From: a virus | Taxonomy: Duplodnaviria > Caudoviricetes | Reading direction: 5' to 3' (one strand) | IMG/VR virus record: IMGVR_UViG_3300042288_000046 | Location: 1 to 35,073 of that record | DNA: 35,073 bases | In this document: piece after piece, positions 51-35,000 of the stretch | Layout of the letters: each line of letters starts with the position of its first letter | How positions within the stretch are numbered: the first letter of the stretch is position 1 | Position numbers and translations under genes: made by a program | The notes under the pieces: generated by a model | The model's input: the letters and a program-made list of their open reading frames with translations, nothing else | Database searches by the model: none | What the model was told of the DNA's origin: nothing

Positions 51-305
51 AGCGCGATACTAGGAAAGAGCGCGAGCCTATACAGAGTCAGTGCCTCAGC
101 CTGCCCTAGCCCTGCCTTGTCCTAGCCAAGCCTGCATGCATAGCCTTGCAAGCAGGTGCTTATCGTTTAAACATGCAAGCATTGCAGGTGGGTGAGTCAT
201 CACCCCAGGGTTATTAAACTGCTGGTATCGGTATCGGTATATCTCTACCTACATAACTTTGATAGTGGTGGGGGTCTGACCTGCACTTTTACCCCACAAG
301 GGCTA

Positions 306-321
306 TGTGATGTAAATCACA
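306..321. promoter_or_regulatory. CRP/GlxR-type binding site
   Basis: Exact TGTGA-N6-TCACA (TGTGA tgtaaa TCACA), extending to ATGTGAT...ATCACAT, in intergenic DNA upstream of terminase. Confidence 0.6.
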
Positions 322-340
322 TGCCCTAAGATGTCCAATA

Positions 341-368
341 GTGTCCTTCTGGACACCTATAGTATAGT
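341..368 (+). promoter_or_regulatory. Putative promoter for the packaging/structural operon with a GACAC palindrome
   Basis: GTGTCC-ttct-GGACAC (341-356) followed by TATAGT -10 candidates at 358-363 and 363-368; no good -35. Confidence 0.45.
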
Positions 369-518
369 GAGAGGCGAAATTATCGGAGCCTCTCTGCTAA
401 GCAACAGCGCCCTCTAGGGGCGCACCCTAAATGAAGCCCTAACCTTCGGCTTCGTTTAGACTTCGCCTTCGGTTAGAGTTTGCCCCAAAACTCACCACAA
501 ATGGTTTTGGAGCATGCT

Positions 519-2378
519 ATGGAAAGAAAGAGAACAACCTCTGCTTCGCATAAAAGCGATGCTATTAAAAAGCAAGTCATTGACTTCCTAATGCAGGGGT
601 ACTCTGTCCAAAAGGCGATGGATGCCGTAGGTCGAAGTGTTAAGACCTATGAGTACTACCGAAAGACCGATGAGCAGTTTGCCTTAGCCATTGATAAGAT
701 TCGCTCTTTAACAGCACGGGGTGAGGTCGGCTCTCCACGAGGGGAAGTACCACCCTTCCCAGAGTTTTCAGAAAAATTTTTAGGGGTCCAAGTATTCCCC
801 CATCAAAAGCACTGGATTGATTTACTAGAGGGTCGAGAGCCTGAGGATGTACATCCTGCTATCTCCTATGAACCTGGGTCATCAGACCTAATCATAGTCA
901 ACACCCCACCAGAACACGCTAAGTCTACGACCATTACAGTAAACTATGCGGTATATCGGATTTGCCAGAACCCTAATATCAGAATAATGATTGTGTCTAA
1001 GACACAGGCTATGGCACAGAAATTCCTGCTTTCTATCAAGAATCGTCTAACCCATCCTCGTTATCAGGATTTACAACTAACCTTTGGTCCGCCAGGGGGA
1101 TATGAAAAAAATTCCGATTCGTGGAAGCAGGACCTAATTTACCTATCCTCCGAGTCTCGTGACTCTGGAGAAAAGGACCCTACAGTTCAGGCTGTGGGTA
1201 TTCGTGGTCATATCTATGGTGCCCGTGCTGACTTAATCATCATGGACGACTGTGTTGACCACACTAACGCCCATGAGTACGAGAAGCAGATTGACTGGAT
1301 TCAATCCGAAGTTATGTCTCGTATTGACAATGACGGCGGACGACTACTGGTTGTAGGCACTCGACTACGCCCACGAGATTTATATTCCGAATTGCGTGAC
1401 CCTATGCGCTATCCAGACGAGACATCCCCTTGGACATACTTTGCCCAACCTGCCGTATTGGAGTTCGCAGATGACTCGAAGGACTGGGTTACGCTCTGGG
1501 CTAAGACCAACATGCCTCCCGTATCTGGCAATGGTGTACCTGATGAGGACGGACTCTACGACAAGTGGACAGGTCCAGCACTGCATAAGAAGCGAAGCCG
1601 TATGTCCCCAAACTTGTGGGCGATGGTCTACCAACAGCAACAGGTTCACGAAGATTCTGCTTTCCCATCAGATGCTATCAAAGGCGTTATTAACGGCGCT
1701 CGCAATATTGGGATTATCCCGAAAGGTAAGCATGGCGTTCGACCTAATGGTATGGACGGGCTTATTGTGGTTGCTGGTCTTGACCCCGCTGGCTCTGGTT
1801 ATACCGCCGCTGTGGTTCTTGGCTTGGATGTTTCTACGCAGAAGCGTTACTTGCTGGATGTCTCCAATGTTGCGGGGATGAAACCAGATGACATTCGTAA
1901 TTTAATTAAAGACTGGACTGAACGCTACAGAGTTACAGAGTGGCGTGTTGAGAAGAACGCATTTCAGACAATGCTTACGCAGGATAGAGAAGTCCGTGAG
2001 TTCTTAACTCGCAGTGGCTCTATGTTGCGTGAACACCATACTGGTCAGAACAAGTGGGACTCAGACTTTGGTGTGGCATCTCTAACAACTTTGTTTTATG
2101 GATGGGATGAAGGCAATGCTCTTATTGAGTTCCCTTCAACACATTCTTCCGAGGGTCTTAAGGCTCTCATTGAACAACTTGTGACATGGTATCCAGATTC
2201 ACCTAAGTCACAAAAGACAGATACAGTCATGGCGTTCTGGTTCGCAGAACTTGGATGTCGTGACCGCTTGGCAAGTGCAACTAACTTTTCTAAGAATCAC
2301 AACAGAATGGGTATGTTTCATACGCCGTATGACCGCTCACAACAATACACCGTCAATCTTGACGAACTATACGCATAG
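519..2378 (+). CDS. terL: Terminase large subunit with an N-terminal HTH (TerS-like) extension
   Basis: Walker A-like PPEHAKST, Walker B LIIMDD, coupling motif VGT, RNase H-like nuclease GLDPA...DTVMA; ATG 519 preceded by GGAG (ORF track starts at 480). Confidence 0.92.
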   Translation: MERKRTTSASHKSDAIKKQVIDFLMQGYSVQKAMDAVGRSVKTYEYYRKTDEQFALAIDKIRSLTARGEVGSPRGEVPPFPEFSEKFLGVQVFPHQKHWIDLLEGREPEDVHPAISYEPGSSDLIIVNTPPEHAKSTTITVNYAVYRICQNPNIRIMIVSKTQAMAQKFLLSIKNRLTHPRYQDLQLTFGPPGGYEKNSDSWKQDLIYLSSESRDSGEKDPTVQAVGIRGHIYGARADLIIMDDCVDHTNAHEYEKQIDWIQSEVMSRIDNDGGRLLVVGTRLRPRDLYSELRDPMRYPDETSPWTYFAQPAVLEFADDSKDWVTLWAKTNMPPVSGNGVPDEDGLYDKWTGPALHKKRSRMSPNLWAMVYQQQQVHEDSAFPSDAIKGVINGARNIGIIPKGKHGVRPNGMDGLIVVAGLDPAGSGYTAAVVLGLDVSTQKRYLLDVSNVAGMKPDDIRNLIKDWTERYRVTEWRVEKNAFQTMLTQDREVREFLTRSGSMLREHHTGQNKWDSDFGVASLTTLFYGWDEGNALIEFPSTHSSEGLKALIEQLVTWYPDSPKSQKTDTVMAFWFAELGCRDRLASATNFSKNHNRMGMFHTPYDRSQQYTVNLDELYA

Positions 2379-2392
2379 AACAGGAGGCGAAT

Positions 2393-4222
2393 GTGGCTCT
2401 ATCTTTAGATGATATTAAAGATAACTATGACCGCTACCGCCAGCAATTCGCCGAGCGAGACAGCCGCATGGAAGCAGTGCTGCTTGTCCGCAAGGGTCGC
2501 ATGCGTGATGTTTACCCAGACCTTTTCCCCGATGGTCCTTTTGAAAATCCTATCGTGGCAAATATGGTGGACATCGCAGCACGCGATTTGTCAGAAGTAA
2601 TTGCTCCGCTACCAGCATTTAACTGCAACTCACCTACAATGGTGTCAGAGTCTGCTCGCAAGAAGGCAGACAAGCGTGAAGAAATTGTTAACTCTTATGT
2701 TGACTTTTCTGATTTGCAAAGTCAAATGTTCACAGCCGCTGACCGCTATATCAGTTATGGTTTTGTTCCAGCACAAGTAGAGTTCGACATGGAAGCGCAG
2801 ATGCCTCGCATCCGTTTCTTAGAAGCAGTTGGTTCTTACCCAATCATTGACCGCTTTGGAAATGTTAACGCTCTCTACCAGCGCACAATGAAGCCAGTAT
2901 CTGAACTTATGGCTTTGTACCCAGAGTACGCACACATCTTGTACGACAAGGATGAGCACAACTCAATGACATCTTTGTTAGAAGTTGTGCGTTATCACGA
3001 CAAAGACCAAGATGTTTTATTTGTACCAACACGCAATAACCTTGTTATTGACCGTGCTAAAAATCCTATTGGCGAATGTATGGTCCGCGTTGTTATGCGC
3101 CCATCACTTGACTCACAGGCTCGTGGTCAATTTGATGATGTATTGCCAATCCAAGTAGCAAAGGCACGCTATGCACTTCTCTCACTTGAAGCAGCAACTA
3201 AAGCAGTTCAAGCACCCATGGTCGCGCCAAGAGATGTCAGTGATATTGCTCTTGGACCAGATGCTATCATTCGTACAGAACGACCTCAGGATGTCCGAAG
3301 AATCCCATTGGAGATACCAGCAGGTGCTTTTGCACAGCAGCAGGTTCTTGAAGGAGAGTTGCGTTTAGGCTCTCGTTATCCTGAATCTCGTACAGGTAAC
3401 ATTGATGCTTCAATCGTTACAGGTCGTGGTGTTCAAGCCCTTATGGGTGGATTCGATACACAGATTAAAACAGCACATGCAATGTTTGCTCGTGCATTTG
3501 TCGAATTGATGAGCCTTGCTCTCAAGGTTGACGAAATGGTATTTGCCGATGTTGAGAAGAACCTGCGCGGTACTCGCAATGGAACTCCATATAACATCAA
3601 GTACAAGCCAAAGAAGGACATTGATGGTGATTACACTGTAGATGTTCAATATGGTTTGATGGCAGGACTTGACCCTAACCGCGCTTTGGTATTTGGTCTA
3701 CAGGCTCGCGGAGATAAGTTGATTTCACGCGATTTCCTACGCCGTCAGATGCCTTTTTCTTTCAATGCAACACAGGAAGAAGAAAAAGTTGACACCGAAG
3801 AACTACGCGATGCAATGAAGCAAGCGATTGCTTCTTATGCTCAGGCTATTCCAGCCCTTGCTTCTCAAGGTCAAGACCCGTCTGACATTCTTTACAAACT
3901 TTCAGCCGTTATCAATGCACGCCAGAAGGGAACCTCTATTGAGGTTGCGGTTTCTGATGCGTTTAAACCACAGAATCCCCCACCTGGTGCGATGACCCCT
4001 GAGGGTATCGTAAGTCCTGACATGATTGGGCAGCCAGGAGCGGTCCCGCCAGGTGAGGGCGAACTTCCACTAGGTATGTCTGCAACTGGTCGTATGCAAG
4101 GTGTAGCACCAGGACAGATTGCTCCAGGCGGTCGTCCAGATGTTCAATCTCTTTTAGCAGGATTAACAGCGAGAGGCGAACCTAATCTACAGGCTTCTCT
4201 CCAAAGACGAGTACCAGTATAA
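2393..4222 (+). CDS. Portal protein
   Basis: 609 aa directly after terminase; SD AGGAGG; size, position and Pro/Gln/Gly-rich C-terminal tail typical of podovirus portals. Confidence 0.85.
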   Translation: MALSLDDIKDNYDRYRQQFAERDSRMEAVLLVRKGRMRDVYPDLFPDGPFENPIVANMVDIAARDLSEVIAPLPAFNCNSPTMVSESARKKADKREEIVNSYVDFSDLQSQMFTAADRYISYGFVPAQVEFDMEAQMPRIRFLEAVGSYPIIDRFGNVNALYQRTMKPVSELMALYPEYAHILYDKDEHNSMTSLLEVVRYHDKDQDVLFVPTRNNLVIDRAKNPIGECMVRVVMRPSLDSQARGQFDDVLPIQVAKARYALLSLEAATKAVQAPMVAPRDVSDIALGPDAIIRTERPQDVRRIPLEIPAGAFAQQQVLEGELRLGSRYPESRTGNIDASIVTGRGVQALMGGFDTQIKTAHAMFARAFVELMSLALKVDEMVFADVEKNLRGTRNGTPYNIKYKPKKDIDGDYTVDVQYGLMAGLDPNRALVFGLQARGDKLISRDFLRRQMPFSFNATQEEEKVDTEELRDAMKQAIASYAQAIPALASQGQDPSDILYKLSAVINARQKGTSIEVAVSDAFKPQNPPPGAMTPEGIVSPDMIGQPGAVPPGEGELPLGMSATGRMQGVAPGQIAPGGRPDVQSLLAGLTARGEPNLQASLQRRVPV

Positions 4223-4479: not shown

Positions 4480-4911
4480 ATGGCACTGCCAAAAAATCAG
4501 AACTTTGAGGTATCCGCAACAGGCGGAGCGGGAACTAATGGTCAACCAGCACGCTATGCAGCAGGCATAGACGGCGCACAGGACTTCTATGACCTACAGA
4601 CTGCAGCACAAATGAGTGGCTCAAACCCAGCGTTCTCTACAGTTCCTTCCCCATCAGGTCAACGCCCATTCCGAGGCGACAGCGCAGCAAAACTTGTACC
4701 ACTAGATGCACCTACTCAACGCCCTGAGGAAGATGTCCGCACTGGTGGAAGCATGGCTACAGACACAATGTATGCAACAGATTCAATGGCTAACTCAGAA
4801 GATGCAGACCGTATGCGTGCAGCACTTCCATACTTGTCAACACTTGCAGAGTTGCCACAGACATCAAATAATTTCCGCAACTATGTACGATACCTAAAGA
4901 GTGTACTTTGA
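4480..4911 (+). CDS. Hypothetical protein, probably virion-associated
   Basis: 143 aa, SD GAGGGA, stop overlaps the start of the next gene. Confidence 0.75.
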   Translation: MALPKNQNFEVSATGGAGTNGQPARYAAGIDGAQDFYDLQTAAQMSGSNPAFSTVPSPSGQRPFRGDSAAKLVPLDAPTQRPEEDVRTGGSMATDTMYATDSMANSEDADRMRAALPYLSTLAELPQTSNNFRNYVRYLKSVL

Positions 4912-7900
4912 GTTTTTCCGAGACACTTGGCGGTTTTGCCAAAAAACTTCAAGGTAACGGATTTGCCAACGACATAGGCTTACCGACTTTATTGTTTGAC
5001 CTTGCTTCTGTGTCATCTAATGACAAGAATTGGGTAGGCGATGCTTTTAACATTGCTGGCGATACTTTTCGTTCATCAGTGTTAGCAGCATCTTTCCCAA
5101 TTCGTAAAGCATCAGGTTTTGCAATCCAAAAGGCTTTGCTTCCAGCAGCACAGTTGTCATACGAAACTGGTGGTCGTTACCTTCGTGAGCCATTATCAGC
5201 AGCATTAACAACACTTGCAACTGGTGATGTAAAAAAGTCATGGGAAAACCGTGATGAGATTTCTCCAGGACAAGCACTTGCTTATTTGCAGTCACGCTTT
5301 CCTGTAACAGGTAATGCGGTAATGGGATTTGATGAAGGTTTTGACATCTTCAATCCTAATGACAGAAAAGACTTTGAAACAGACTGGAATCTTCGCACTA
5401 TCACTGGTGCTTACGACACATTCTTTACAACAGTAACTGACCCACTAGGCAAAATTGGCAAGGCTGCAGGTCTTGCTCGTAAGGCTTTGGTTACACGCCC
5501 AATGGGTGCTGTTGATGCTAACGCTTCAACTTTGGCTCGTGACTTCTTTATGCCAAAGAGTATCCGTAAGACAACTATTATTTCTCCTGAGACTCTTGCA
5601 AGAACAATTAACGAGGGTCGTGAAGAAGGCGGAGAACTTTACAATACGCTTTCATGGTTTGCTAAGAGTGACCAAGTTTCATCACGCAGCCATCCAACTG
5701 TTGAACTTTCTAATGATGCAGATACATTGTCATACCTTTTAGGTGAGGCAAAAACTGTAGATGATGTAGCAGATACATTTATGGCTACAGCGCTTAAGGA
5801 CAAAGAAGCAATGGCTCGTCTTGTCGCCAAGCGTAAAGACCTAGCCTTTGTTATGGATAAGATTAAAGATACATCTACAACAGAACTTAATATGTTGGAC
5901 AATATCCCAACTAACGGCATTGTAGATGACATCAACAAGTTAGATTCAGCAGATGCTCTTGTCAAGAATCTTGATGAAGATGTTTATTTCCGCTACTTAA
6001 CAACCCTTAATGACAAGGGTGCAGATTTAACTAAGCGTACTTTTGGTGCATCACCATTTGAAAAGATGGCTATTAACCGAGCAGAGCGGCGTGCAGCAGG
6101 CATCCGTGGCAAAGTTGATGATATTGATTCACCAACAAGTTTCCCTACAGTAGGTTACTTCCAACCTACAAAGTATCATCCGCTAGTTGCGGTTGTTAAC
6201 TTCGGCGTGAAAAAGGTAGGCGATGCTTTCCAGGAAAAGCCAGCAGGATATATTAACCTTAACGATTCTGATTCGTATAACGAAATTGCGGCATTTGGCA
6301 ATCTTCTTCGCCGTGTTGTTGGAGACGAAGCAAACCCGATTGTCCAAAGACATTTAAACGATTACATCCAGTCAGGTGGCACACCAGAACTTCGTGCTCG
6401 TGTAGTTGAGTCATTTGAAGATTTAGCGATTACATCTATTAACCGCAAACTCGGTATCTCCGATGAAGCAGGCGCACAAATCTGGGGAGCATACAAGTCT
6501 CGCCGTGAGACTGCACGCTCTATGATTAAGGACCGCAAGTTCTTAATGACTAATGATGATGTTATTCTTAAGATTCCTTACTTAGAACGCCAAGGCGCTA
6601 ACGCTTTACCAATGGTTGACTTGGAAAACTACGAGCGTGTTCTTATGAAGAACAAGGGACTTCTCAAGGCACTAGAAGGTGGCTTTGATGTTGTAGACCC
6701 AGACTCATGGCGCTATACCACTGGCATTATGAATGACATGTGGAAGGCATCAGTTCTTCTACGCCTTGGTTACACAGTAAGAAATGTGTCAGAAGGTGCG
6801 CTGTCTATCATGGCTAAGGGCTACGGCTTAATGGCTCTAGGTGACTTAAACCGCGAAGGCTTTGATGCATGGTACTCAAATCGTGTACGCGACATTGAGC
6901 GCATCACTGACCGCCGTTTAGTATCACAAGGCGCTCGTGAAGATTCTATTCAACTGCGCCGTTTATTTGCTGAGAAGCAATATGAGTTTGGTGCTGCTGA
7001 CCGCATGTACAACGAGTTGCTTGCATACTTGCCAGCAGCAGAGCGTGCGTTCCTTAATGGCAAGTTAGATGAAGCGCAGTTAAAAGAAATTATTGATGTT
7101 TTCCAGTATGCAACTGGTGAGTATCTATACCATGGAACACCTACTCCTATCAATGGTTTAGATAACACTCGTCCATTTGCGATGAGCCTGTCACAGGATA
7201 TTGCTAACCGCTATGCCGATGCTGCAATGCCAACTGTTTCTGCCGCTGATATTTACAAGCGCATGACTGGTCGTGCTGGTCGCTTGCCTAAGAACATTGA
7301 GCGTTCTGCTGCTGATGAAATTGGTTCAGAAGCAATTATTGACAGACTCAGTGAAGATGAATTTTTAGAACTTACAGAGTATGTAGCAGGAAACTTTCAA
7401 GATATTCAAGCAGGATTGCGTGATGCAAATTTTGCAATATCTCGTGGACGAAATATACCAGAACTTCCAAAAACATTACAGAGAACAATTCAGCGAAGCG
7501 TTCTTAAAGAACCACTAACTGTATATCGTGGAACTACTAACCCAAGAAATATTTTTGCTAACGCGCAAGTTGGCGATATTATCGAAGAACCTGCTTTTGT
7601 TTCAACAAGTTATAGCGATGATGTTGCAAGAAATTTTGCAACTCCAAATCCTTTAAATAAAATACCAACATTAAATACAAATCTTAAACCTGGCGAAGAT
7701 ATGTTTATACCAGGAGAAGAAACCATTTCTACGCAAATAAAAATGAAACTTCCTAAAGGTTTAAACGGTTTAGATGTTGGCGCAACTTATCAAGATTTTT
7801 CTAATAAAACAGGAACTCAAATTAGCCGTGAAACGCTAATGATGGTTAACAGAGAGTCGGAAGTTTTACTTCCTGCTGGAACAAAGTTTCGTGTTATTAG

Positions 7901-10900
7901 CCGTGGCGGAAATGTAGATTCTGGATTTGTAGTTACTGTTGAAGCAATCCTTCCAAAGGCTGCTCCTAAGCAGAAGCCATCACTTGCTATGGAAACTATC
8001 GGTGCAGACATGCGCGATGGCTTCATCAACACAGTAAACAATGGTAATCAAGTAGAACTACTGAACCCTCAAACAGGACAGTGGCGAACCATTGACCCAA
8101 ATACAGTTTCTCAGAAGATGCTTGTTCAAGGCACATTCCGTATTCGTAAACCTGGCAATCAAGGTGCAGTCCTTGGCAACAAGGTTTATGGAGAAAGCAT
8201 TGACCTTCGTTTATTCCAAGGTAACCGAGCCAAACTAGGTTTAAAAGACTACCCAGAATTGCAAAAGATTCTTGGTGTTGGAGAAACTGCTGGTTGGAAA
8301 ACTCGTGCAGCATGGGAAGGCAAAGAGGACCAACTCCTTGGCTGGATGCGTGCTAATGGCGTAGGAAAGTTAGTACTTCCTGATACTAAGGCTAATGGCA
8401 ACGCTACAGTTCTTGTAGACCCAGAGATGGTAGAAGCCTTTGGTGAACAGCCTGCTGTTCTGCTTGCTGAAAAGCGTTTAAACGCAATTAAAAACCAGCA
8501 GCAATTACTTTCTGATGAATCTCGTGTGGCTAAACTAATCGAGGACACCATCAAGAATGGTGGCGCAACAGTTTCATTTACTGGCGATGTTCCTACATCA
8601 GGATTCTCTGTTGCTATCCGTGGTGCTACACATACATTCTCCGTAGAAGATGCTCGCAATAATCCTCAAGCATGGATTGATTCTATGGCTGAGCACTTTG
8701 AGAAGAACCTTGAGAAGTTTGGCACAGCAGACCATTTTGGTACTTGGGTGCAAGACATTGATGGCGTGCCACATATCTGGGCTGACCCTACGAATGTTAT
8801 TGTAGATAAAGCAAAGGCTGCTAAACTAGGACTTGAAAGAAACCAAGTTGAAGTTGCTGACCTTGCCGCCATTCAAAAGGGCGACTGGGACAATGCAATG
8901 ATTAACACTAAGGGTACAGGAGATAAAAATGCCAGCGCAGAATTTGCATTGGGTCAAGGCACCAAAGCCAGTATCGGAAATGTCCCAGGAGGAACGCAGG
9001 GCGTTCGCCGAGTTATTGGCACGGAGGGCTTTGGAAAACGCATTGATGAACTCGAAGCCATCCTCAGCACAAGAAAGTATCCAACAGACGGGCTTGTAAG
9101 TCTTGTTCGTGAGTTTGCCGATGGGCAGGCTGCAGCAAAGCGTGACATGAATGGTCTACTAAGTAGACTTGATGCACGCCTTGTAGAAGAAGGTCGCATT
9201 GCTGCACCTCGCCAGATTCAAGGCACAGGTCGCCGTACAGAAAGACTTTACGATGGCAGCATGGTTGAGTTTGACGATTCATTTAGAGGTGAAGGTGGAG
9301 CAATCCTACTATCTCAAACTGATAACGCTCAAACCTACCGCAATTTTGTAGACCATCCATCACAGTTATTCGCAGCAGAACACTCAAACTTTACAGAGGC
9401 TCGCCTCACAGCCAAGATGCCTGAGTACTACACAGGTTATGCTAACCAACTGAACTCATTCTTCCGCTCACCTGATGGTCGTATTGACCCTATCGTTGAA
9501 ATGTTCCTTAATGGAATGAAGCCAGAGCAGGCTGTTGCATGGTTACGCAAGCCAGAGAATGTTGCTTACGCTCGTAAGTTTAACATTGATGTTCCTGGTA
9601 TCAAGGTAATGTCAGAGCGTTTAAATGTATCTATGGATGCAGAAGATTTTGTTGGTGACTTGTATAGCGCCTATCAGCGCTACCTTCCAGACAATGAAGT
9701 GCAAGAAGCCTTCCGTGCTGGTGATGCAACAGAGCAATGGTTGCGTACACACTTTACTGATAACCCAAATATGCCAGACATTATCGGTCGTATTGTGCCT
9801 ACAAGCCAAGAAGCCCGTACATGGCAAGAGGGTATGAGTAAGGTTGTAGAGCGTGCTTTCCACTTCTTAGGTTCATTACCCGAAACTACAGTGGCTCGTC
9901 ACCCACTAGCCCGTCAGATTTATCGTGCAGAGTACAAGAATCGTTTAGATATTGCTCTTGCCACAAAGCGTTTAAACGAAGGCGATGCTGCCGAACTTAC
10001 AGTAGATGACATTAACAACCTACGCGGACAGGTCATTGAGGCTACACGCAAGGAAGTTAACAGCACACTCTTTACTATTATTCGCAAATCATACGCAGGC
10101 GAAAAGATGCGTTTCATTATGCCGTTCTTTAACGCATGGGAAAACACTATTCGCCGTTGGTATGGACTTACTAAGGATAATCCAGCAGTTGTCGCCCGTG
10201 CAGGACAGGTTATTTCTTCTCTGCGTAACCAGCCAAATGTGGTTGACCAAGATGGTAACCAAACTACTGAGTTTAGTTATGACAACAAGATTGTCCTACC
10301 TATGCCAGAAGGTGCAATCAAAACAGTTAGCATGATTCCTGGCTGGGGTAAGGGAATGGCAGAGGCATTGCGTTCATCAGGAACTCAGATGTCTATTCCA
10401 ATCCGAAGCCTTGACATCCTGTTCCAGGGTGAAGCGATTGCAGGATTTGGTCCTATTGTAACTATGCCAGTCAATGAGATAGTTAAAATAAAGCCAGACC
10501 TTGAGGACTTGGTTACATCAACAGTGTTGCCAGTGCTTCCATTTGGTCCACAAGAAGGCTTTCTACGCCAGTTGTTCCCACCTGCAGCACAGAAACTTAT
10601 CTCATTACGAGGTCAGGATGAAGCGTGGAGCCGTACATTTAATACTGTTTACCGCTATGAATTGATTCGCTTTAACCTTGGCGAGCGCAATACATTGCCT
10701 GAACTTGGTGAGATTAAAACAATGGCAGATAACCTCTACAAGGTTAAGATGCTTTCTAACTTGGTAATGCCATTTGCTGCACAGTATGACTCAACATTAA
10801 GTTTCTACACACAGCAGTTCCGCCGTCTACAGCAGGTATACGGACAGGATGCAGAGGCTTTGTTCCTTGAGATGTACCCTGAAATGTCACCTGCTTTGAT

Positions 10901-17933: not shown

Positions 17934-18096
17934 GAAAGACAAGGTTGCCAAGGTAATGGGTGAGTTTAAACGCGGAACCCTTAACGCAGGCAAAGACCCA
18001 AAGGGTCCAAAGAAGGCACCAGTAGTCAAGAACCGCAAGCAGGCAATCGCTATTGCATTGTCTCAGGCTGGCAAGGCTAAGAAGCGTGCCAAGTAA
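17914..18096 (+). CDS. Small basic protein (DUF6496-like)
   Basis: KVAKVMGEFKRGTL...RKQAIAIALSQA motif; ATG 17914 favoured over the ORF track start 17842. Confidence 0.7.
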   Translation: MKKSTPKKDKVAKVMGEFKRGTLNAGKDPKGPKKAPVVKNRKQAIAIALSQAGKAKKRAK

Positions 18097-22740: not shown

Positions 22741-22760
22741 GACCCTGAAAGGTTAATTAA

Positions 22761-23603: not shown

Positions 23604-23620
23604 TATGTTAAGGGGACAAG

Positions 23621-24328
23621 ATGAAAGAAATAAAGTTCTTTCCAGTAAAAAAGGAAGTTGAACTTGGGGGCAGCGCTCCAAAGCCTGCCCTTAAGTTCAT
23701 ACCTGAGTGGTATAAAAATATACCTATATATACTGATAACGAAAAAAAATTAAGTATGAAAGAAGATGCTCAAATGCATAATCATACTTTAAAAAAATGT
23801 GTTCCCTTTTTAGATGCAATGACTTCTGGATATGTATTCACACTTGATGATGATATATATGTTGAGCAAGTTAATAACGAACCATACATCAGATGGAAGT
23901 CTGAGGTAGAAATTATTACTTGGCACTCCCTCAATCAATTTCCAGGATTTTCTATACCCGATGATTATCATTATATGGTTGCTAAGTTTCACAACGATTG
24001 GAAAATAACAACACCAAAAGGTTACAGCCTTTTTTGCACACACCCGTCCAATAGATTTGATTTACCATTTAGAACTATTAGCGGTTTTGTGGATACTGAT
24101 ACTTACAGTCAGCCAATACAATTTCCTTTTATTCTTAAAAAAGGTTTTGAAGGAATAATAGAAGCAGGCACTCCAGTTGCTCAACTAATTCCAATTAAAA
24201 GAGATGACTGGAAATCAATTCAAGAACCATATAATGCAGATGTTGCTTACAAAAACTTTAGAGCGTTTAGAAGAACTTTTGCAAATTCATATCGCAAAAA
24301 CTTTTGGCAGAAAAAGAAGTATCAATAA
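23621..24328 (+). CDS. Conserved phage hypothetical protein (DUF6065/dUTPase-fold-like)
   Basis: CVPFLDAMTSGY, TPKGYS...HPSNRFDLPF...GFVDTD, IEAGTPVAQLIPIKR. Confidence 0.6.
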   Translation: MKEIKFFPVKKEVELGGSAPKPALKFIPEWYKNIPIYTDNEKKLSMKEDAQMHNHTLKKCVPFLDAMTSGYVFTLDDDIYVEQVNNEPYIRWKSEVEIITWHSLNQFPGFSIPDDYHYMVAKFHNDWKITTPKGYSLFCTHPSNRFDLPFRTISGFVDTDTYSQPIQFPFILKKGFEGIIEAGTPVAQLIPIKRDDWKSIQEPYNADVAYKNFRAFRRTFANSYRKNFWQKKKYQ

Positions 24329-24329
24329 A

Positions 24330-25076
24330 ATGATTATTCAAATTATCGGTTTACCTGGCAGTGGTAAGACAACACTTGCCACTGCTCTGGCTGACCGCAT
24401 CAATGCTGTACATTTAAACGCTGATTATGTACGGGCAACCATTAACTCTGACTTAGGCTTTGCGCCAGAGGATAGAGTTGAACACGCCCGCCGTCTTGGT
24501 GAGATGGCTAAGATGCTATCTAGCCAAGGCTTAGATGTTGTTGTTGACTTCATCTGCCCTACCGCTGCTACTCGTGCAGCCTTCGGTAAGCCTGACATCT
24601 GTATCTGGATGGACACTCTTGCCGAGGGTCGCTTTGAAGATACAAACAAACTGTGGGAAAAGCCTACTGAGTTTGACTATCATTTTGTGTCTTACGACAG
24701 TAAAGGTCAAACAGATTTAATCATTGCTCAGTCTGGTCTGCATGACTGGAAGGCACCTACAACCCTATTGCTTGGTCGGTATCAACCATGGCATGAGGGA
24801 CACCACGCACTATTGGAGAAAGCACATGAGCGTACAGCACAGGTTGTTATTGGCGTTAGGGATACTCACGGCACTAGCGAGAAAGACCCTCTCCCTTATC
24901 AAGAAGTTGCCAATCGGATACGAGCCGAAGAACGGTCATCTTTCGTTGTAAAGTTTCCTAACATTACGAACATAGTTTATGGGCGTGATGTTGGCTACAA
25001 GATTGAGCAAGTTGATTTAGGTGCAGACATACATGCAATCTCAGCAACACAGAAAAGAAAAGAACTTGGCTTGTGA
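24330..25076 (+). CDS. cysC: Adenylyl-sulfate kinase-like domain fused to an HxGH nucleotidyltransferase
   Basis: P-loop GLPGSGKTT; LNADYVRATINSDLGFAPEDRVEHARR and DFICP resemble CysC; C-terminal GRYQPWHEGH...ISATQKR; ATG 24330. Confidence 0.75.
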   Translation: MIIQIIGLPGSGKTTLATALADRINAVHLNADYVRATINSDLGFAPEDRVEHARRLGEMAKMLSSQGLDVVVDFICPTAATRAAFGKPDICIWMDTLAEGRFEDTNKLWEKPTEFDYHFVSYDSKGQTDLIIAQSGLHDWKAPTTLLLGRYQPWHEGHHALLEKAHERTAQVVIGVRDTHGTSEKDPLPYQEVANRIRAEERSSFVVKFPNITNIVYGRDVGYKIEQVDLGADIHAISATQKRKELGL

Positions 25077-25282
25077 AAGTAAGCAAGTCCCGTTCATTTA
25101 CTAAATCACTCAGTTATAGAATCTTTGGAACACTTAGTTCTTTTGCTGTTGTATTTGTTATTACTGGCGAAGGAACTCTTTCTGCGCTGATTGCGCTTTG
25201 GGAAACAGTAGTCAAGATTGGTATCTATTACTGGCATGAAAGAATCTGGGACAAAATATCCTGGGGTAGAAAATCTAATTAA
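25073..25282 (+). CDS. DUF2061-like small membrane protein
   Basis: RSFTKSLSYRIFGT...KIGIYYWHERIWDKISWG. Confidence 0.8.
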   Translation: MKVSKSRSFTKSLSYRIFGTLSSFAVVFVITGEGTLSALIALWETVVKIGIYYWHERIWDKISWGRKSN

Positions 25283-25291: not shown

Positions 25292-27256
25292 GTGGCAAGT
25301 CGCCCACCTGATATATCCGAGCGCGTGATAATTGACCTGTCTGGTCGAACATCCGCCTACTATGACCCAACCACATACAAGTTTGATGTTGCTATCGGTG
25401 GCATGCCGTTTATCTATGGCATCACAGATGCAACACCATACCGCCGTCAGACTGCAGAGTTTAGAACTCAGCGCTTTGACAATGCCCGTGACCCAGGTGA
25501 GCAATCACTGTCAGGCTCAGGCTATTGGATTCGTTCACAGTCATCCTTCCACTTAGGTGGAGGCATCACATACCAAGAGCCTATCGTTGGCACGCCTGAT
25601 GAGGTTAAGTTTCAGTTCTCTGACTCAGTAGGCGTAGACCCATGGACTCCAGGACAGTTGAGCCTGCTCCACTCTACAAGCCTTACACAGGCTTCTACTG
25701 CCCGCTCTGGTGTTTTCTCTACCATTATCAGTGGCGTTGAGTACCTAGTTAAAGTCACTGGTTCAGCAGCCGTTACAGCCCGTGTAACAACCACTACTAC
25801 TGCTGGTACAACAGCAACAATTATTAACAACACAGCCATTAATGAAGAAATTCTTTATGCTGCAATGGGTGGTAATGACTTAATGATGGTCACACCTACT
25901 AAGGTATGGCGTTACTCATTCGATGCCGTTAGCCCTGCCTTACATCAGGACTACGCGATTAACACAGCCAATGCTACCTCTGCTTTTATCTCTTATGTCA
26001 AGCAACGCTTTATGTTGGGCTTTACTGATACAGCAAAGAATACATTTGTCTATGAGTTGGTACGCAACACAGGTTCAAGTATCAATATCAGTACACTTAC
26101 CGCTGTTAATGGTAGCGCTACCTTACCTATTGGATTTAGATTCATGGGTATTACAGAGTCAAGTGCTGCTATCTATGTCGGTGGATTCTCAGGTGATGAA
26201 GGTGTCGCCCTTAAGATTTCAGTAGATAACACTGGTGCACTAAGCACTATGACTACAGTACTTGTGCTACCACGAGGCGAACGCCTTACTGCTTTGTATG
26301 GATACCTTGGTACCTTTGTAGCCATTGGTACTAGCCAAGGCGTGCGGATTGCAATCTCAGATGCTACTGGCAACCTATCTTATGGTCCGCTTGTGTACGA
26401 ATCAGCCTACGATGTCTATGCATTTACAGCCAGAAACGAATACATCTGGGCTGGTGTAAAAAGTGAAGTAGATAGTTACTCAGGACTTATCCGTATTAAC
26501 CTTGGCTCACCATTAGGTAGCGGCAAGTATGCGTACGCTAAAGATATTTATGCATCAGGTACTACTGGCTACATCTGGTCTATTGCTACATTTGCCAACG
26601 GACACAAAGCATTTACAGTTGAGGACTCTGGATTATGGCGTGAGTCGCAGACAGATTATGTTGAGTCAGGTGAGATAACTACTGGCGTTATTCGCTTTGA
26701 TACTTTCGAGAACAAGGCATGGAAGCGTATTAAATTGCGCCTTGAAGGAACACTACAAGGTGACATAGATATGTTTCGTGTTATTGATGGTACAGACATA
26801 GCATTTCAGACAGTGCCAGAAGGTACTACCGCTATCTATGACTATGACTTAGCACCTGTCTTTAATGATGTTACAGCCGAAGCACAGTTCAAGTTCCGTT
26901 TAAACAGAAACAATACAGACCCAACTAAGGGTGCTGTTATCTATGGATACTCAGTCAAGGCTTTGCCTACACCTACTCGTGCTCGAGTACTACAGATTCC
27001 ATTGTTCTGCTTTGACCAAGAGACTGACCGCAATAAACAAATCATTGGTTATCAAGGCTATGCACTTGCTCGCTTGCAAGCGCTAGAACAAATGGAAGCA
27101 TTGGGCGAAACGCTCATCATCCAAGACTTTACTGCTGGTGGAGAACCTATCGAAGCAGTGGTTGAGCAGGTTACATTTACCCGCACAACACCACCTAACG
27201 GAAACTTCTCTGGTTATGGTGGAGTAATTCAAGTAGTTGCTCGTACTGTCGTCTAA
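25292..27256 (+). CDS. Putative tail nozzle / tail tubular protein B-like structural protein
   Basis: 654 aa, beta-rich (propeller-like); SD AAGGAG; last structural gene before lysis. Confidence 0.55.
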   Translation: MASRPPDISERVIIDLSGRTSAYYDPTTYKFDVAIGGMPFIYGITDATPYRRQTAEFRTQRFDNARDPGEQSLSGSGYWIRSQSSFHLGGGITYQEPIVGTPDEVKFQFSDSVGVDPWTPGQLSLLHSTSLTQASTARSGVFSTIISGVEYLVKVTGSAAVTARVTTTTTAGTTATIINNTAINEEILYAAMGGNDLMMVTPTKVWRYSFDAVSPALHQDYAINTANATSAFISYVKQRFMLGFTDTAKNTFVYELVRNTGSSINISTLTAVNGSATLPIGFRFMGITESSAAIYVGGFSGDEGVALKISVDNTGALSTMTTVLVLPRGERLTALYGYLGTFVAIGTSQGVRIAISDATGNLSYGPLVYESAYDVYAFTARNEYIWAGVKSEVDSYSGLIRINLGSPLGSGKYAYAKDIYASGTTGYIWSIATFANGHKAFTVEDSGLWRESQTDYVESGEITTGVIRFDTFENKAWKRIKLRLEGTLQGDIDMFRVIDGTDIAFQTVPEGTTAIYDYDLAPVFNDVTAEAQFKFRLNRNNTDPTKGAVIYGYSVKALPTPTRARVLQIPLFCFDQETDRNKQIIGYQGYALARLQALEQMEALGETLIIQDFTAGGEPIEAVVEQVTFTRTTPPNGNFSGYGGVIQVVARTVV

Positions 27257-27997: not shown

Positions 27998-28183
27998 ATG
28001 GAACAATTTAAGCAACTCGGACTGACATGGTTCCGTGCTGCGGCATCTGCTGCGATTGCACTTTACCTTGCTGGCGAGACGGACCTTAAGACCCTTGCTG
28101 CTGCAGCCCTTGCAGGCTTTGCAGGTCCACTACTCAAGTGGCTTGACCCATCAGCAACTGAGTACGGTCGCGGCTCAAAGTAA
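27998..28183 (+). CDS. Holin-like protein
   Basis: 61 aa, two hydrophobic segments, LLKWLDP...YGRG ending; SD GAGGAGG. Confidence 0.7.
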   Translation: MEQFKQLGLTWFRAAASAAIALYLAGETDLKTLAAAALAGFAGPLLKWLDPSATEYGRGSK

Positions 28184-28194
28184 TCGTTTAAACA

Positions 28195-30048: not shown

Positions 30049-30051
30049 TAC

Positions 30052-30840: not shown

Positions 30841-31167
30841 ATGACACCTAAATGGGAAATCAAAGTGGTGGAAAATGCGGGAGAACTGCAGGGTAGTTTA
30901 AACGCAGAGGATGTAGTCGTCCCAACTAAGCCATTGATTACAGACATTAAATCGCAGTTGATGTTTATACCGAAACAGTTTTCATGGACAGTGGGATGGA
31001 GAGCGTATGTTTGGCAGGAAGAAGAAAGCGGAAGATTCAAAGACCTCACAGATGAGGAATTCAAAAGACTCCTTGATGAAGGCACTATCAGTTACACCAG
31101 AGATGATGGAACAGGCAGTGATGTCAGCGAAACAAATTCCAGCGGAGATGAAACAAGCAATACTTGA
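30841..31167 (+). CDS. Hypothetical protein
   Basis: 108 aa, SD AAGGAG. Confidence 0.7.
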   Translation: MTPKWEIKVVENAGELQGSLNAEDVVVPTKPLITDIKSQLMFIPKQFSWTVGWRAYVWQEEESGRFKDLTDEEFKRLLDEGTISYTRDDGTGSDVSETNSSGDETSNT

Positions 31168-31426
31168 TGGACTACCAGAGTTTATTGAACGCATTGATGA
31201 GGCTACACAAAAAATCTACGACCCATCACAAGTCTGGTTTGAATCTTTACAGTTCGCTGATTATGTTGGGCAGTTGGCTGAACATCTTACTGAGGACCAC
31301 GGACCAGAGTGCAGAGAAGAAATCGCAACCCAACTCCGACTCATGAGTGAGTCATGGAAAGACCTAGCAGAGAACGCAATGGAAGTACTCGACAAGTCAG
31401 AGGAAGTGTTTAAACATGGCGCATAG
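31007..31426 (+). CDS. Hypothetical helical protein (start uncertain)
   Basis: 139-aa ORF, GGAG upstream, fills 31167-31416. Confidence 0.6.
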   Translation: MFGRKKKAEDSKTSQMRNSKDSLMKALSVTPEMMEQAVMSAKQIPAEMKQAILDGLPEFIERIDEATQKIYDPSQVWFESLQFADYVGQLAEHLTEDHGPECREEIATQLRLMSESWKDLAENAMEVLDKSEEVFKHGA

Positions 31427-32144: not shown

Positions 32145-32487
32145 CAAGCGCAGAGGTGCTGCATTTGAAATAGAACTAGCAGACTGGCTTATGGCACAGG
32201 GTTTAAACGCACAGCGTTTGCCAAGAGCGGGGCGCAATGACATCGGAGATGTCTACCTTCCTGCTAATACTGATGGCTATGTCATTGAAGCAAAGGCACC
32301 ACGCCGTGATGGTCGTATTGATTTGAGTGGATGGTTGCGTGAGGCTGAGATTGAAGCAGAGAACTATCGTGTGCAGAAAAGACTGGTGCTCGCACCATCC
32401 CCATTAGTAATTATTAAGGCAAGCAATAAGGGGATTGGAGAGTCGTATGTCGTACAGAGGCTCCGTGATGCACTCCCAAAACTCTAA
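32122..32487 (+). CDS. Holliday junction resolvase (Hjc-like)
   Basis: KRRGAAFE...GDV...VIEAK. Confidence 0.8.
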   Translation: MPTQQASNKRRGAAFEIELADWLMAQGLNAQRLPRAGRNDIGDVYLPANTDGYVIEAKAPRRDGRIDLSGWLREAEIEAENYRVQKRLVLAPSPLVIIKASNKGIGESYVVQRLRDALPKL

Positions 32488-32845
32488 GCATGACATCGTT
32501 AAAGTACTAGAACACTACGGATTTACAGTACCAACTAATCGTGGTGGTTGGGTAACAGTGCGCTGTGCCTTCCACAATGATAAGGTTAAGTCAGCGCGTT
32601 TAAACATAGACAACGGTGGTTTCCGCTGCTTTGCATGCGAGATGTCTGGTGATGTCTACTCACTCATTATGAAGAAAGAAGGAGTTACCTATGTCAAGGC
32701 TCTCGAAATCGCAGAGGGAATTACTGGCGAAAGCAACAGAGAACTACGAAAGAAACCTAGACGAGGTGGCTCCGTATCTGGAGAGTCGAGGTATAACCAA
32801 GGAGACAGCACTTATGTTCCGCCTCGGCTTCGTAAAGAATCCTGA
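32468..32845 (+). CDS. Primase zinc-binding (CHC2) subunit
   Basis: CAFHND...SARLN...FRCFAC...GDVYSLI. Confidence 0.85.
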   Translation: MHSQNSKHDIVKVLEHYGFTVPTNRGGWVTVRCAFHNDKVKSARLNIDNGGFRCFACEMSGDVYSLIMKKEGVTYVKALEIAEGITGESNRELRKKPRRGGSVSGESRYNQGDSTYVPPRLRKES

Positions 32846-33311
32846 GACAGGACACGAACCATACCAAGGCAAGTTGGCTATCCCATACCTGACACCATCA
32901 GGAGTAATTGACATACGCTTTCGCAGTTTAAACGCAGATAGCGGACCGAAGTATCTATCAAGACCTGGTGCAAGCACACACATTTTTAATGTGGCTGCAT
33001 TGAATACAGACTCTGATGTGCTGGTCATTTGTGAGGGTGAGATTGACACGATGATTGCTACACAAGTGGGCTTCTCTGCTGTTGGTTTGCCTGGTGCTAA
33101 TAACTGGAAACCATTTTATACAAGAGTCCTTGCGGATTGGGAAAAGATTATGTTGTTCTGTGATGGTGACAACGCTGGTAAGGAGATGGCTAAGACAATT
33201 ACTCGTGAACTGGACAATGTGTTCCCAATCTTTATGCCTGAGAACTGTGATGTGAATGATGTGTACCTCGCCGAGGGCGCAGAAGGACTACATAAACGAG
33301 CGGGTGTTTAA
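32691..33311 (+). CDS. Primase TOPRIM subunit
   Basis: YLESRGI, IPY, KYL, ICEGEID, DGDNAG, DVND; own SD AAGGAG. Confidence 0.88.
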   Translation: MSRLSKSQRELLAKATENYERNLDEVAPYLESRGITKETALMFRLGFVKNPETGHEPYQGKLAIPYLTPSGVIDIRFRSLNADSGPKYLSRPGASTHIFNVAALNTDSDVLVICEGEIDTMIATQVGFSAVGLPGANNWKPFYTRVLADWEKIMLFCDGDNAGKEMAKTITRELDNVFPIFMPENCDVNDVYLAEGAEGLHKRAGV

Positions 33312-33313
33312 AC

Positions 33314-33721
33314 ATGGCAAAGAACTCATCATTTGATTTAGATTTTGGATACGGTAGAAAAGGCGAGCAGTTAGTAGAGGAACTGTTAACCGAAGGCAAG
33401 ACTATAGAAGTCAAGCGTGACCGCAAATGGTGGGTTACTAACAATCTTTACATTGAAGTTGAGTGCTGGTTTATGAAGTCTAAATCATGGGAGCCATCGG
33501 GCATCATGGTTACTGAGGCTGCATACTGGGCATTTGTATTAGAAAAGGGTGTGCTCATGGTACCAACAAGCCATGTGTTGTACGCCATTAAAGAGTTTGG
33601 CAGAGAAATTACTTGCGAGATACCTCCGAACAAGAGTAAAGGTTATCTGATTACAGTAGATGATTTGCTCACAGCAATGCGTAAGTTAAAGAATGAGAAA
33701 GAAGAACCCAAAGATGGATGA
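33314..33721 (+). CDS. Hypothetical protein, PD-(D/E)XK-like
   Basis: GE...IEVKRD...NLYIE...PSGI pattern. Confidence 0.6.
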   Translation: MAKNSSFDLDFGYGRKGEQLVEELLTEGKTIEVKRDRKWWVTNNLYIEVECWFMKSKSWEPSGIMVTEAAYWAFVLEKGVLMVPTSHVLYAIKEFGREITCEIPPNKSKGYLITVDDLLTAMRKLKNEKEEPKDG

Positions 33722-34385
33722 GCAAGACAAGGTATGGGAAACTATCTATGGCACAGCACGACAGGTTGCATCGCGCAGTAACCGCATCCATCGTGGACTT
33801 GTAACTACTGATGATGTGTACCAACACCTATCTTTGTGGGCATTAGAACACTGGCACAAGATAGAAGAATGGGAACAGCAAGAGTCGTTGAAGTTTAAAC
33901 TGCGCCGTACTTTCTACAATGAAGCACAGAAGTATGTTGCAAAAGAACGCATGCACCATTCACGCACGCCTATGTCTGACAGTTTTTACTACACCCATGA
34001 AGTACTACACGAACTATTGCGTGATGTGTGGGAGCATGAAGGGTGGACAGATACAGCAGACTTAAGCAATGAGTATGTGTCTAAGTCAAGCAAGCCAGCA
34101 GAAGGTGGCAACCGAATGGCTTTGCTATCTGATGTGGCGGCAGGGCTAAAGCGTTTAAACGATGCAGACCAGGCGCTGCTGCGGCTAAGATACGCTGATG
34201 GTGGCATGGAGTTTGATGCTTTGGCTGAGGAATACCAAGCAACAGAGGAAGCCATACGCAAGCGTGTCAAGAGGGCGTTGACTAAGTTGCAAGATAGATT
34301 AGGTGGCGAAGCGCCAGTGTGGTATGGGCGTAGGCGTAACCGCAGTAATGCAGAAGCACGAGAGGAAGTAAAGAACAATGACTAA
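33714..34385 (+). CDS. RNA polymerase sigma-factor-like protein
   Basis: DDVYQHL (region 2-like); LKRLNDADQALLRLRY...LAEEY...AIRKRVKRALTKL (region 4 HTH). Confidence 0.75.
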   Translation: MDEQDKVWETIYGTARQVASRSNRIHRGLVTTDDVYQHLSLWALEHWHKIEEWEQQESLKFKLRRTFYNEAQKYVAKERMHHSRTPMSDSFYYTHEVLHELLRDVWEHEGWTDTADLSNEYVSKSSKPAEGGNRMALLSDVAAGLKRLNDADQALLRLRYADGGMEFDALAEEYQATEEAIRKRVKRALTKLQDRLGGEAPVWYGRRRNRSNAEAREEVKNND

Positions 34386-34467
34386 GAAGAAACTAATACG
34401 GATTGTAGTATTGATTGAGATTGTACTTGTAATTGTAATGCTTAAGTTAGTGATGGACTACAAATGA
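34378..34467 (+). CDS. 29-aa single-TM peptide (MTKKKLIRIVVLIEIVLVIVMLKLVMDYK)
   Basis: Translated by hand; overlaps both neighbours; GAGGA upstream. Confidence 0.55.
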   Translation: MTKKKLIRIVVLIEIVLVIVMLKLVMDYK

Positions 34468-35000
34468 TTATAGGTTTGAGTGGGTATGCACGCAGTGGTA
34501 AAGATACAGTTGCTGAACTGTTGTGTTTAAACTATGGATACAAGCGCGTATCATTTGCTGACCCAATGCGTGAGGCACTGTTGCGTTTAAACCCTACTAT
34601 CAACCATGAACCTCTGGCTCATCTGGTGAATGATTATGGTTGGGATGTAGCCAAGACTAACCCTGAGGTGCGCCGTTTGTTACAAGTGTTTGGCACCGAA
34701 GTTGGTAGAGAAATGTTTGGCGAGAACTTCTGGGTTGACTTAGCGTTTAAACAAGTGCAGCAAGAGCGCGTTGTGTTTGCTGATGTTCGCTTTCCTAATG
34801 AAGCACAAGCCATAATCAAAAGAGGTGGGCAAGTGTGGCGTGTACAGCGTGAAGGACACAAGCCTGTGAACTTACATGCATCTGAAACTGCAATGGATAA
34901 CTGGCGCTTTGATGATTTGATTCTTAATCATGGCAACCTTGATGACCTAGCCGATGAAGTCTTTATGTTGGCTAAGCAAAAAGAAATTAACTTGGCATAA
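34464..35000 (+). CDS. Deoxynucleoside monophosphate kinase
   Basis: IIGLSGYARSGKDT, SFADPMR, RRLLQVFGTEVGR, DVRFPNE, HASE. Confidence 0.9.
   Translation: MIIGLSGYARSGKDTVAELLCLNYGYKRVSFADPMREALLRLNPTINHEPLAHLVNDYGWDVAKTNPEVRRLLQVFGTEVGREMFGENFWVDLAFKQVQQERVVFADVRFPNEAQAIIKRGGQVWRVQREGHKPVNLHASETAMDNWRFDDLILNHGNLDDLADEVFMLAKQKEINLA

Follow-up and report, generated by a model that had tools for sequence, protein, structure and literature searches.

A dispersed 8-bp palindrome in a clade of tailed phages and its candidate reader, a SprT-like zinc-ribbon protein

RK2 KorB with its OB sites and lambda cI and Cro are the familiar cases in which one protein acts at scattered palindromes and represses its own promoter, all through helix-turn-helix (HTH) domains and, in cI, with an S24 peptidase as well. 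An operator that overlaps the promoter of its own gene is the established pattern of negative autoregulation. A dispersed word can also be chromosomal, as with HIP1, an 8-bp palindrome that occurs chromosome-wide in cyanobacteria and is tied to a methyltransferase core. HIP1 of cyanobacteria is also named in e1-9795374. The operators and stoperators of Cluster A mycobacteriophages and the MabJ prophages are oriented asymmetric words of 13-14 bp that lie mostly between genes in temperate phages (PMC9934374). Here we analyse IMGVR_UViG_3300042288_000046, a linear IMG/VR record of a tailed phage that is 87% complete (35,073 nucleotides, the whole of which we call the window), in which the palindrome GTTTAAAC recurs 20 times. 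We propose, with a probability of roughly 60%, that GTTTAAAC is the site of an autoregulated zinc-ribbon repressor that damps early and replication genes through stoperator-like copies.

In the proposed mechanism the phage gene that opens the early arm would encode a zinc-ribbon protein (SprT-like, here without the protease motif) that would bind GTTTAAAC and repress its own predicted promoter; through many further stoperator-like copies it would also lower the transcription of early and replication genes. With the protease domain dead or deleted in this clade, what is retained would be DNA binding. That the SprT-like zinc ribbon reads the word is, judging by the co-variation of the two sequences, very probable; we hold repression to be less certain than reading because the pattern at the gene itself is one of autoregulation but the bulk of the sites lie outside promoters and their spacing is mixed. 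Physical binding, the promoter status of the upstream element, repression and a function for most of the sites are what we infer from the patterns described below.

The first-pass annotation of the window had counted 20 exact copies of GTTTAAAC, and every one of its coordinates proved correct, with no copy of the reversed word as a control. Its estimate of about one copy from base composition also agrees with Markov models of orders 0-3, which expect 0.69-1.01 copies and so give an enrichment of about twentyfold; orders 5-6 expect 5.0 and 14.9 copies since the word itself supplies its sub-words at these orders. The reported clustering at 30.9-34.8 kb is likewise present, with 11 of the 20 copies beyond 30,800, in the last 4.3 kb (binomial P 5e-6), and 16 copies do extend to CGTTTAAAC on one strand. 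The enrichment goes beyond what protein coding would produce: 17 copies lie within 42 open reading frames (ORFs), whereas 1000 synonymous-codon shuffles of these ORFs that keep every protein average 1.4 and never exceed 7. The annotation's three codon phases plus intergenic DNA resolve into 12 x-Leu-Asn, 5 x-Phe-Lys, 1 Val-stop junction (33306) and 2 intergenic copies (165 and 28186), and GTTTAAAC writes 7 of the 8 Arg-Leu-Asn and 12 of the 18 [RGSC]-Leu-Asn tripeptides of the window. It is clear that GTTTAAAC is a real, selected word. A substitution is tolerated at position 3 of the word (family GTNTAAAC), and the flanks of GTTTAAAC are weakly biased to Y..R. The near-variants that the annotation placed at 6352, 9618, 22487 and 24412 exist, but probably are not sites, since ATTTAAAC reaches just 1.4x expected across 11 clade genomes.

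The window runs from structural genes through exonuclease, helicase, RusA, split primase and sigma-like factor to a dNMP kinase. Its terminase is ~50% identical to those of Streptomyces phages WRightOn, Manuel and relatives (Beephvirinae), which together with a WhiB gene in relatives points to an actinobacterial host; a helicase scan of bacterial genome contigs turned up no relative. Record G001, 99.9% identical to the window over 25.4 kb, supplies what is missing at the break point between the end of the window (35073) and base 1, namely ~5.7 kb of leftward early genes with 20 further copies of GTTTAAAC, so that the whole phage would carry ~40. These leftward genes include WhiB, transglycosylase, amidotransferase and amidoligase, and the first of them encodes a 189-residue SprT-like protein ending in a zinc ribbon (L001:12839-13408, minus strand), with a predicted operator at L001:13428-13435. 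The probable reader gene thus likely sits in the piece that the window lacks. Of the early/replication module that had been described as the zone of concentration, it is the early arm, missing from the window, and not the replication module that is densest. Among nine near-complete relatives, GTTTAAAC occurs at 0.2-0.7 per kb in structural genes (~0.3), at 0.5-2.0 in replication genes (1.1-2.0 except for one genome at 0.5) and at 2.9-4.7 in the early arm.

Counting the word in related phages, as the annotation had suggested, finds it enriched in the clade, at 36x expected pooled over 11 genomes (whole records), and shows that relatives differ in dialect. Of 80 helicase relatives, 64 carry at least 3 copies of GTTTAAAC (including 3 mosaics with a second word besides), 6 have no TTAA at all, their word being GTCTAAAC, and the remaining 10 hold 0-2 copies of GTTTAAAC, with a word in GTCTTAA enriched in 7. 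Two TTAA-free genomes have GTCTAAAC at 64x, GTGTAAAC at 19x and GTATAAAC at 11x expected; neither contains doubly changed forms, GTCTAGAC being an example. In six genomes, GTCTTAAGAC and three one-base variants stand at 22-62x expected (pooled, with the 76.6-kb G014, which has two terminases, entered whole in the RNTNL group; the records of G011, G013 and MW2 are without their last 144-175 bases). Separately, G014 (L119-L122) has two helicases at 85% and 45% identity beside its two terminases and probably is two joined phage genomes.

The gene families that split by dialect within the clade are the SprT-like gene, the amidoligase and the amidotransferase. The SprT-like gene comes in two forms, one with KQ[ST]TRL (QxTR) and no HExxH, in many relatives cut down to the ~55-residue ribbon alone, the other with RNTNL and an intact HExxH. 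All 80 of 80 QxTR loci hold at least 3 copies of GTTTAAAC against at most 0.7 expected, and all 80 of 80 RNTNL loci hold GTCTTAA at 3x expected or more together with 0-4 copies of GTTTAAAC; both sets contain near-duplicates. On a terminase tree (quick IQ-TREE, 92 distinct terminase fragments) the reader form changes 10 times, with at least 6 changes forced by well-supported branches. Two loci, L331 and L333, illustrate such a switch: they lie next to the lineage of the window and are 93-96% identical to the window in terminase, 98% in helicase and 90-92% in sigma, yet have the other word and RNTNL, retaining just 4 old copies of GTTTAAAC in replication genes. The word of this second pair, GTCTTAA[GT][ATC]C (L275-L354, e.g. 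L074:14600-20500), is in many cases joined to the ribosome-binding site, giving TTAAGACAGGAG, and, like the stoperators, points mostly in the direction of transcription, with 985 copies against 230 (related loci, not independent). A start-associated element, ACAGACTGGAGA, also precedes many early genes (early arms of L001 and L025), its form in the RNTNL group being ACAGACAGGAGA.

This co-variation of word and ribbon supports the suggestion of a selected signal for a phage DNA-binding protein, perhaps as roadblock operators, and bears on which protein that would be. Among the proteins first proposed as readers, the TerL HTH and sigma probably do not qualify, as both are near-identical in L331 and L333 despite the other word, and nor probably do the 33314 protein and the primase zinc ribbon, which occur in genomes of both word types. 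The amidoligase and amidotransferase co-vary with the word in the clade, but are not common to unrelated carriers, and we rejected them; their module (L001:10546-11352 and 12062-12835) is found in the early arm of QxTR-type and not of RNTNL-type relatives. Readers of the GntR/HutC type have GTnTAnAC sites, and this candidate was also set aside, with no such family among the genes scanned and the doubly changed forms absent. No repressor or integrase family matched any of the 39 window and 35 early-arm proteins scanned.

In the G001 allele HExxH is absent and no Pfam family matches, PF10263 included, whereas the RNTNL allele has the motif and matches PF10263 (E 4.7e-6), as do the named homologues. 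Both alleles match phrog_6361, and the G001 allele aligns over its full length to HExxH-bearing representatives at 20-38%. The family profile gathers 1,369 clusters (50% identity) at E up to 0.001; among the best 150 family representatives, HExxH lies upstream of the ribbon in 96, and 40 are short and without HExxH, some possibly fragments. The model of the ribbon (pLDDT 83) has a beta-hairpin, a helix and a cysteine knuckle, and that of the 189-residue protein (pLDDT 89) the ribbon plus a SprT-like body. The residues K, Q, T, R, K and R in or before the hairpin are conserved in at least 90% of aligned family members, which in the model is consistent with a DNA-contact surface. Structural comparison of the ribbon returned generic zinc ribbons only (Foldseek best E 0.26; VIA best Z 3.6, root-mean-square deviation 5.5, 52 aligned), ESM Atlas matched only hypothetical and generic zinc-binding clusters, and no named relative came from PDB sequence search, Foldseek (both models), VIA wide or NCBIfam.

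Searches with the 55-residue ribbon and with Elezi gp44 match cultured phages and plasmids, and all 14 whole named records with a QxTR/QxAR ribbon exceed expectation for GTNTAAAC. Observed against expected counts are 42 and 0.07 in Araceli, 24 and 0.45 in Elezi, 18 and 0.06 in IAmGroot, 18 and 0.37 in VroomVroom, 17 and 0.61 in R5C, 16 and 0.38 in Pan1, 14 and 0.49 in 4A, 36 and 7.3 in Venkman, 7 and 0.68 in Mica, 4 and 0.63 in Persinger, 4 and 0.89 in Mano and 4 and 0.60 in pDS4, with PT1 and pAP4 taken up below. Records with 0-2 TTAA use GTGTAAAC, which occurs 17-41 times in AZ, EH and Streptomyces Araceli/Bogota phages (L123, L222, L223, L226, L227); each AZ/EH genome counted has 17-23 copies, one of them beside the predicted promoter of the gene, and the word counts of Liebe (17) and Bogota (40) stand without expected values. 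Four carriers whose SprT-like protein has diverged in its tail (Katzastrophic, Elva, MW2 and Epa43) have 0, 0, 1 and 1 copies, and in two related phages, WRightOn and ct2KA10, with no match to the gene, the word is at background. The sole ORF from five source genomes that matches 13-14 of the 14 elements is the SprT-like gene, a result that alone is not independent since the records were picked by that gene. As a separate observation, Pseudomonas phage Epa43 (L242-L245), divergent in its SprT-like tail, has a different word, CCCTGGGC, in 51 copies where 5.5 are expected.

A scan in the opposite direction started from the word (two copies 5-35 bases apart) and yielded 126 stretches from 5 of the 64 parts of the viral collection; the resulting table covers 72 records, each searched whole with the family profile (46 loci without flanks, 2 duplicates and 5 records excluded). 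Records with 5 or more extra copies and more than tenfold excess, counted as word-rich, have the gene in 12 of 15 cases, the 3 misses being 17-20% complete; intermediates have it in 1 of 12, and word-poor records, with no more than 1 extra copy, in 0 of 45. Of the 12 gene-bearing word-rich records, 10 lie outside this clade. Loci with the gene in bacterial genomes contain GTNTAAAC in 23 of 26 cases, and the copies of GTTTAAAC in a genome fall largely inside the 14-21 kb locus of the gene (5 of 7 in Sphingobium vermicomposti, 5 of 5 in Caulobacteraceae, 3 of 3 in Micromonospora). An uncultured phage group (L356, L363, L382, L393, L413, including the 64-kb G062 with terminal repeats) is also rich in GTTTAAAC and has the QxTR gene, from which HExxH is missing in two cases.

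The placement of sites around the gene is what suggests repression (promoters here are consensus predictions only). A copy lies at most 160 bp upstream of the reader gene in 55 of 56 distinct clade genes, and 37 of these 55 copies are in a sigma-A-like context (TTG..-16/18-.A...T), compared with 54 of 901 other early-arm sites. The upstream copy is mostly between the -35 and the -10; in G001, TTGACA is followed by two bases, the word, eight bases and TAAGTT. In 10 of the 14 named elements a copy is 15-73 bp upstream of the gene, several beside a -10-like hexamer, as in Elezi (L123), where GTGTAAAC at 34268-34275 stands upstream of the SprT-like gene and directly after the -10-like hexamer TAGACT. 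The upstream copy therefore fits the pattern of negative autoregulation.

Several results weigh against repression as the role of the word. A promoter-like context is found at 32 of 304 clade sites compared with 7.4% of nearby random positions, and at 0 of the 20 window sites, which rules out the idea that all sites are promoter operators. Among the word-first phages a copy lies within 130 bp upstream in 1 of 9 reader genes, and among the bacterial-genome loci within ~100 bp in 4 of 26. PT1 (7 copies against 2.5 expected) and pAP4 (3 against 0.43) are weak positives for GTNTAAAC, and Elva has a stand-alone ribbon, yet no obvious word of its own. Sites of the structural arm turn over fast (none of 9 same-word relatives keeps the copy at 26898-26905, in a 654-residue gene), and that at 3961-3968 (portal gene, Ala-Phe-Lys) may be incidental since it is better kept in other-word (5 of 6) than in same-word relatives (1 of 9). 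No integrase matched among the window and early-arm genes scanned. Whole-genome spacing is more even than random in 7 of the 14 named elements (P<0.05), which would fit a DNA coat equally; in Venkman and in this clade the sites are clustered.

The coat is at the centre of the main rival to repression, which we consider unlikely. It has the same reader and takes the word as a protective self-tag, such that the first-made protein coats incoming DNA and shields it against translocating restriction enzymes or host silencers; in a variant, the HExxH-intact form would be a tethered protease that clears host proteins off element DNA, and the upstream copy would just set the protein level. The even spacing in half of the named elements is what a coat would give, as is the location of most sites inside genes and outside promoters, and the density peaks in the arm that would enter first (entry order being our inference). 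The word is scarce in sampled bacterial genomes, the HExxH of the 96 family representatives would suit the variant, and restriction-site avoidance is extreme in the window, where five 4-base palindromes (AGCT, GGCC, GATC, ACGT, CCGG) are at zero against 48-202 expected each. On the other hand, the RNTNL word is oriented with transcription and overlaps ribosome-binding sites, the protease is lost in this very clade, where the word is densest, and sites are sparse (0.3 per kb) across two thirds of the genome.

An alternative that we regard as improbable keeps the reader and makes the copies a titration sink that times the early-to-late switch, or a centromere-like array of the KorB type that organises and segregates an unintegrated genome. 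Many exact sites of equal strength and an autoregulatory copy would suit it, as would the AZ4 phages, which have turbid plaques and no integrase (bioRxiv 10.1101/2025.05.26.655371). A plasmid also fits, NZ_CP053347 (L126:7326-8978), in which the SprT gene lies directly 5' of parA and a ribbon-helix-helix gene and contains one of the plasmid's three word copies. However, no partition ATPase was found among the phage genes scanned, and a sink need not track the early-to-late gradient.

More improbable still is that the ribbon reads RNA, not DNA, and regulates early transcripts at the level of translation or decay. The word does stand directly before ATG at 31 of 304 clade sites, where roughly 14 are expected, and the oriented RNTNL word is fused to the ribosome-binding site. 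Yet the conserved upstream copy, mostly between the predicted -35 and -10, would not be transcribed, and the word is palindromic, so that GTTTAAAC itself has no orientation; both orientations are used in Araceli (19:22) and IAmGroot (7:11), though the ratios in AZ are 17:6 and 15:3. Last, a host-made mark (HIP1-like, Chi-like or a methyltransferase target, as the annotation had also offered) or a mutational drive by another linked factor is largely refuted: the variant used does follow TTAA avoidance, which is probably host-imposed, but the same word serves elements of Actinobacteria and Alpha-, Beta- and Gammaproteobacteria, near-identical phages use different words, no DNA methyltransferase matched among the window or early-arm genes scanned, and the word is confined to the element, without iteration in 251 sampled genomes of the class of a Micromonospora genome (maximum 15 copies of GTTTAAAC per genome) and below its reversed control in all 19 sampled genomes of 1.0-1.7 Mb.

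Between the early-arm promoter, missing from the window, and the terminase gene lies the intergenic copy at 165-172. The gene of a 2245-residue virion protein holds three copies, at 7759-7766 (Gly-Leu-Asn), 8476-8483 (Arg-Leu-Asn, which in TTAA-free relatives is GTATAAAC, Arg-Ile-Asn) and 9970-9977 (Arg-Leu-Asn, GTGTAAAC and Arg-Val-Asn in TTAA-free relatives). The copy at 17964-17971 (Glu-Phe-Lys in a small ORF, 17914-18096) is not conserved, and that at 19611-19618, in an adaptor-like gene, is kept in 7 of 9 same-word relatives and is GTTTAAAT in 5 of 6 other-word relatives. At the end of the late arm, the copy at 28186-28193 is directly 3' of the stop of ORF 27998-28183, and G003 has one in the same place.

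In the replication arm, the copy at 30896-30903 (ORF 30841-31167) is kept only in the near-identical G001, and that at 31408-31415 is immediately 5' of the ATG of a glycosyltransferase. The RusA-like gene contains 32201-32208, kept in 9 of 10 same-word relatives, replaced by GTCTAAAC in both TTAA-free genomes and absent in 6 of 6 other-word relatives. The Arg-Leu-Asn at 32598-32605, in the primase zinc-finger gene, is written as GTTTAAAC, GTCTAAAC or GACTCAAC according to group, the last in 5 of 6 other-word relatives. In the primase Toprim gene, 32926-32933 is kept in 8 of 9 same-word relatives, and 33306-33313 spans the Val-stop of the primase, immediately 5' of the next ATG. The sigma-like gene has 33893-33900 (Lys-Phe-Lys, but Lys-Tyr-Lys in 6 of 6 other-word relatives) and 34153-34160 (kept in 9 of 9 same-word relatives). 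The dNMP kinase gene has three copies, at 34525-34532, where the same Cys-Leu-Asn is GTTTAAAC, GTCTAAAC or GTCTTAAT, each group's own word, at 34585-34592, kept in G001 only, and at 34745-34752, kept in 3 of 9 same-word relatives. Codons at such orthologous positions follow the word of the lineage; against this stands the turnover of sites in the structural arm.

Other features of the window may be recorded here. The 2245-residue virion-region protein (4908-11645) has an ADP-ribosyltransferase-like domain at residues 812-998 (PF03496, E 6e-9; phrog_832), and AZ and EH phages also have an ADP-ribosyltransferase in a head gene. A variable block after the tail fibre (21844-25282) encodes a glycine-rich protein, DUF6065, a fusion of APS-kinase-like and cytidylyltransferase domains and DUF2061, with the GC content falling to 34% at 23001-24000. 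The 135-residue protein at 33314-33721 (phrog_13596) looks like a PD-(D/E)XK nuclease by eye and has no Pfam or NCBIfam match. Of the six-base palindromes, 35 of 64 are absent from the window, and relatives are additionally without TCGA, CGCG or TTAA, which suggests hosts rich in 4-base restriction systems.

The SprT-like gene has been described in the cluster AZ phages, of which bioRxiv 10.1101/2025.05.26.655371 states that lysogens are immune, that the repressor is unidentified and that a SprT-like protease is among four candidates; it also states that Liebe, with a truncated copy, forms clear plaques and Maureen turbid ones. Liebe keeps the ribbon and 17 sites, which counts against repression by the ribbon, and its plaque phenotype would point instead to the protease half; it also has three other changes. 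In that source and in 10.1101/2020.11.21.392811, the protease is likened to DNA-crosslink repair proteases and its small C-terminal domain is predicted to bind DNA. No target word is given in the text searched of either ('TAAAC' has no match), though supplements could list repeats that the first cites as 'data not shown'. We found no description of the word or of the word-reader pairing in the literature, subscription journals being largely outside the search.

What we describe would be a case of phage operator control at many sites, by a reader family that is not known to read DNA sequence. We advance only tentatively, as a possibility short of even odds, the wider view that SprT-zinc-ribbon proteins form an unrecognised class of master repressor in phages and plasmids, with a swappable code (QxTR-GTNTAAAC, RNTNL-GTCTTAA), genome-wide codon rewriting, a metalloprotease lysogeny switch and stand-alone ribbons as a Cro-like lytic form, and that they include the missing AZ/EH repressor. 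A large family labelled only 'SprT-like protease' (1,369 clusters) gains a candidate DNA target and, if the reading is true, AZ and EH, soil phages well studied in culture, gain a candidate for their missing immunity repressor. The switching of word and reader between near-identical phages, with the word bending round TTAA avoidance, offers a natural experiment in protein-DNA co-evolution. The present analysis adds a second word-reader pair, shows on a tree that the reader form switches repeatedly, tests the pairing from the word alone, and supplies host controls and statistics on predicted promoters.

Compared with the known systems, the word resembles the stoperators of Cluster A (PMC9934374) in that dozens of copies of one word are spread genome-wide and are densest near the right end or early arm, that one copy overlaps an early promoter (here a predicted one) and that the word changes with the repressor allele. 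It differs in being an 8-bp palindrome with 17 of the 20 window copies inside ORFs rather than intergenic, in a candidate reader that is a zinc ribbon without HTH or repressor family match, in a clade with no integrase seen, and in a word-reader pairing that spans phages and plasmids of several phyla. The SprT-like protease of Clusters AZ and EH (Lizalica gp46, Elezi gp44) is homologous to the clade reader and has the same QxTR ribbon, but AZ phages use GTGTAAAC, keep HExxH and space their sites evenly, whereas this clade uses GTTTAAAC, has lost HExxH and clusters its sites. Like HIP1, GTTTAAAC is an exact palindrome of 8 bp that synonymous codon choice has worked into every reading frame; unlike HIP1, it stays within mobile elements and goes with a protein that the element encodes. 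KorB/OB and cI/Cro offer an analogy only: a peptidase-fold domain joined to a DNA-binding domain, and a stand-alone short form, would be common to both, but here the parts are a SprT metalloprotease and a zinc ribbon.

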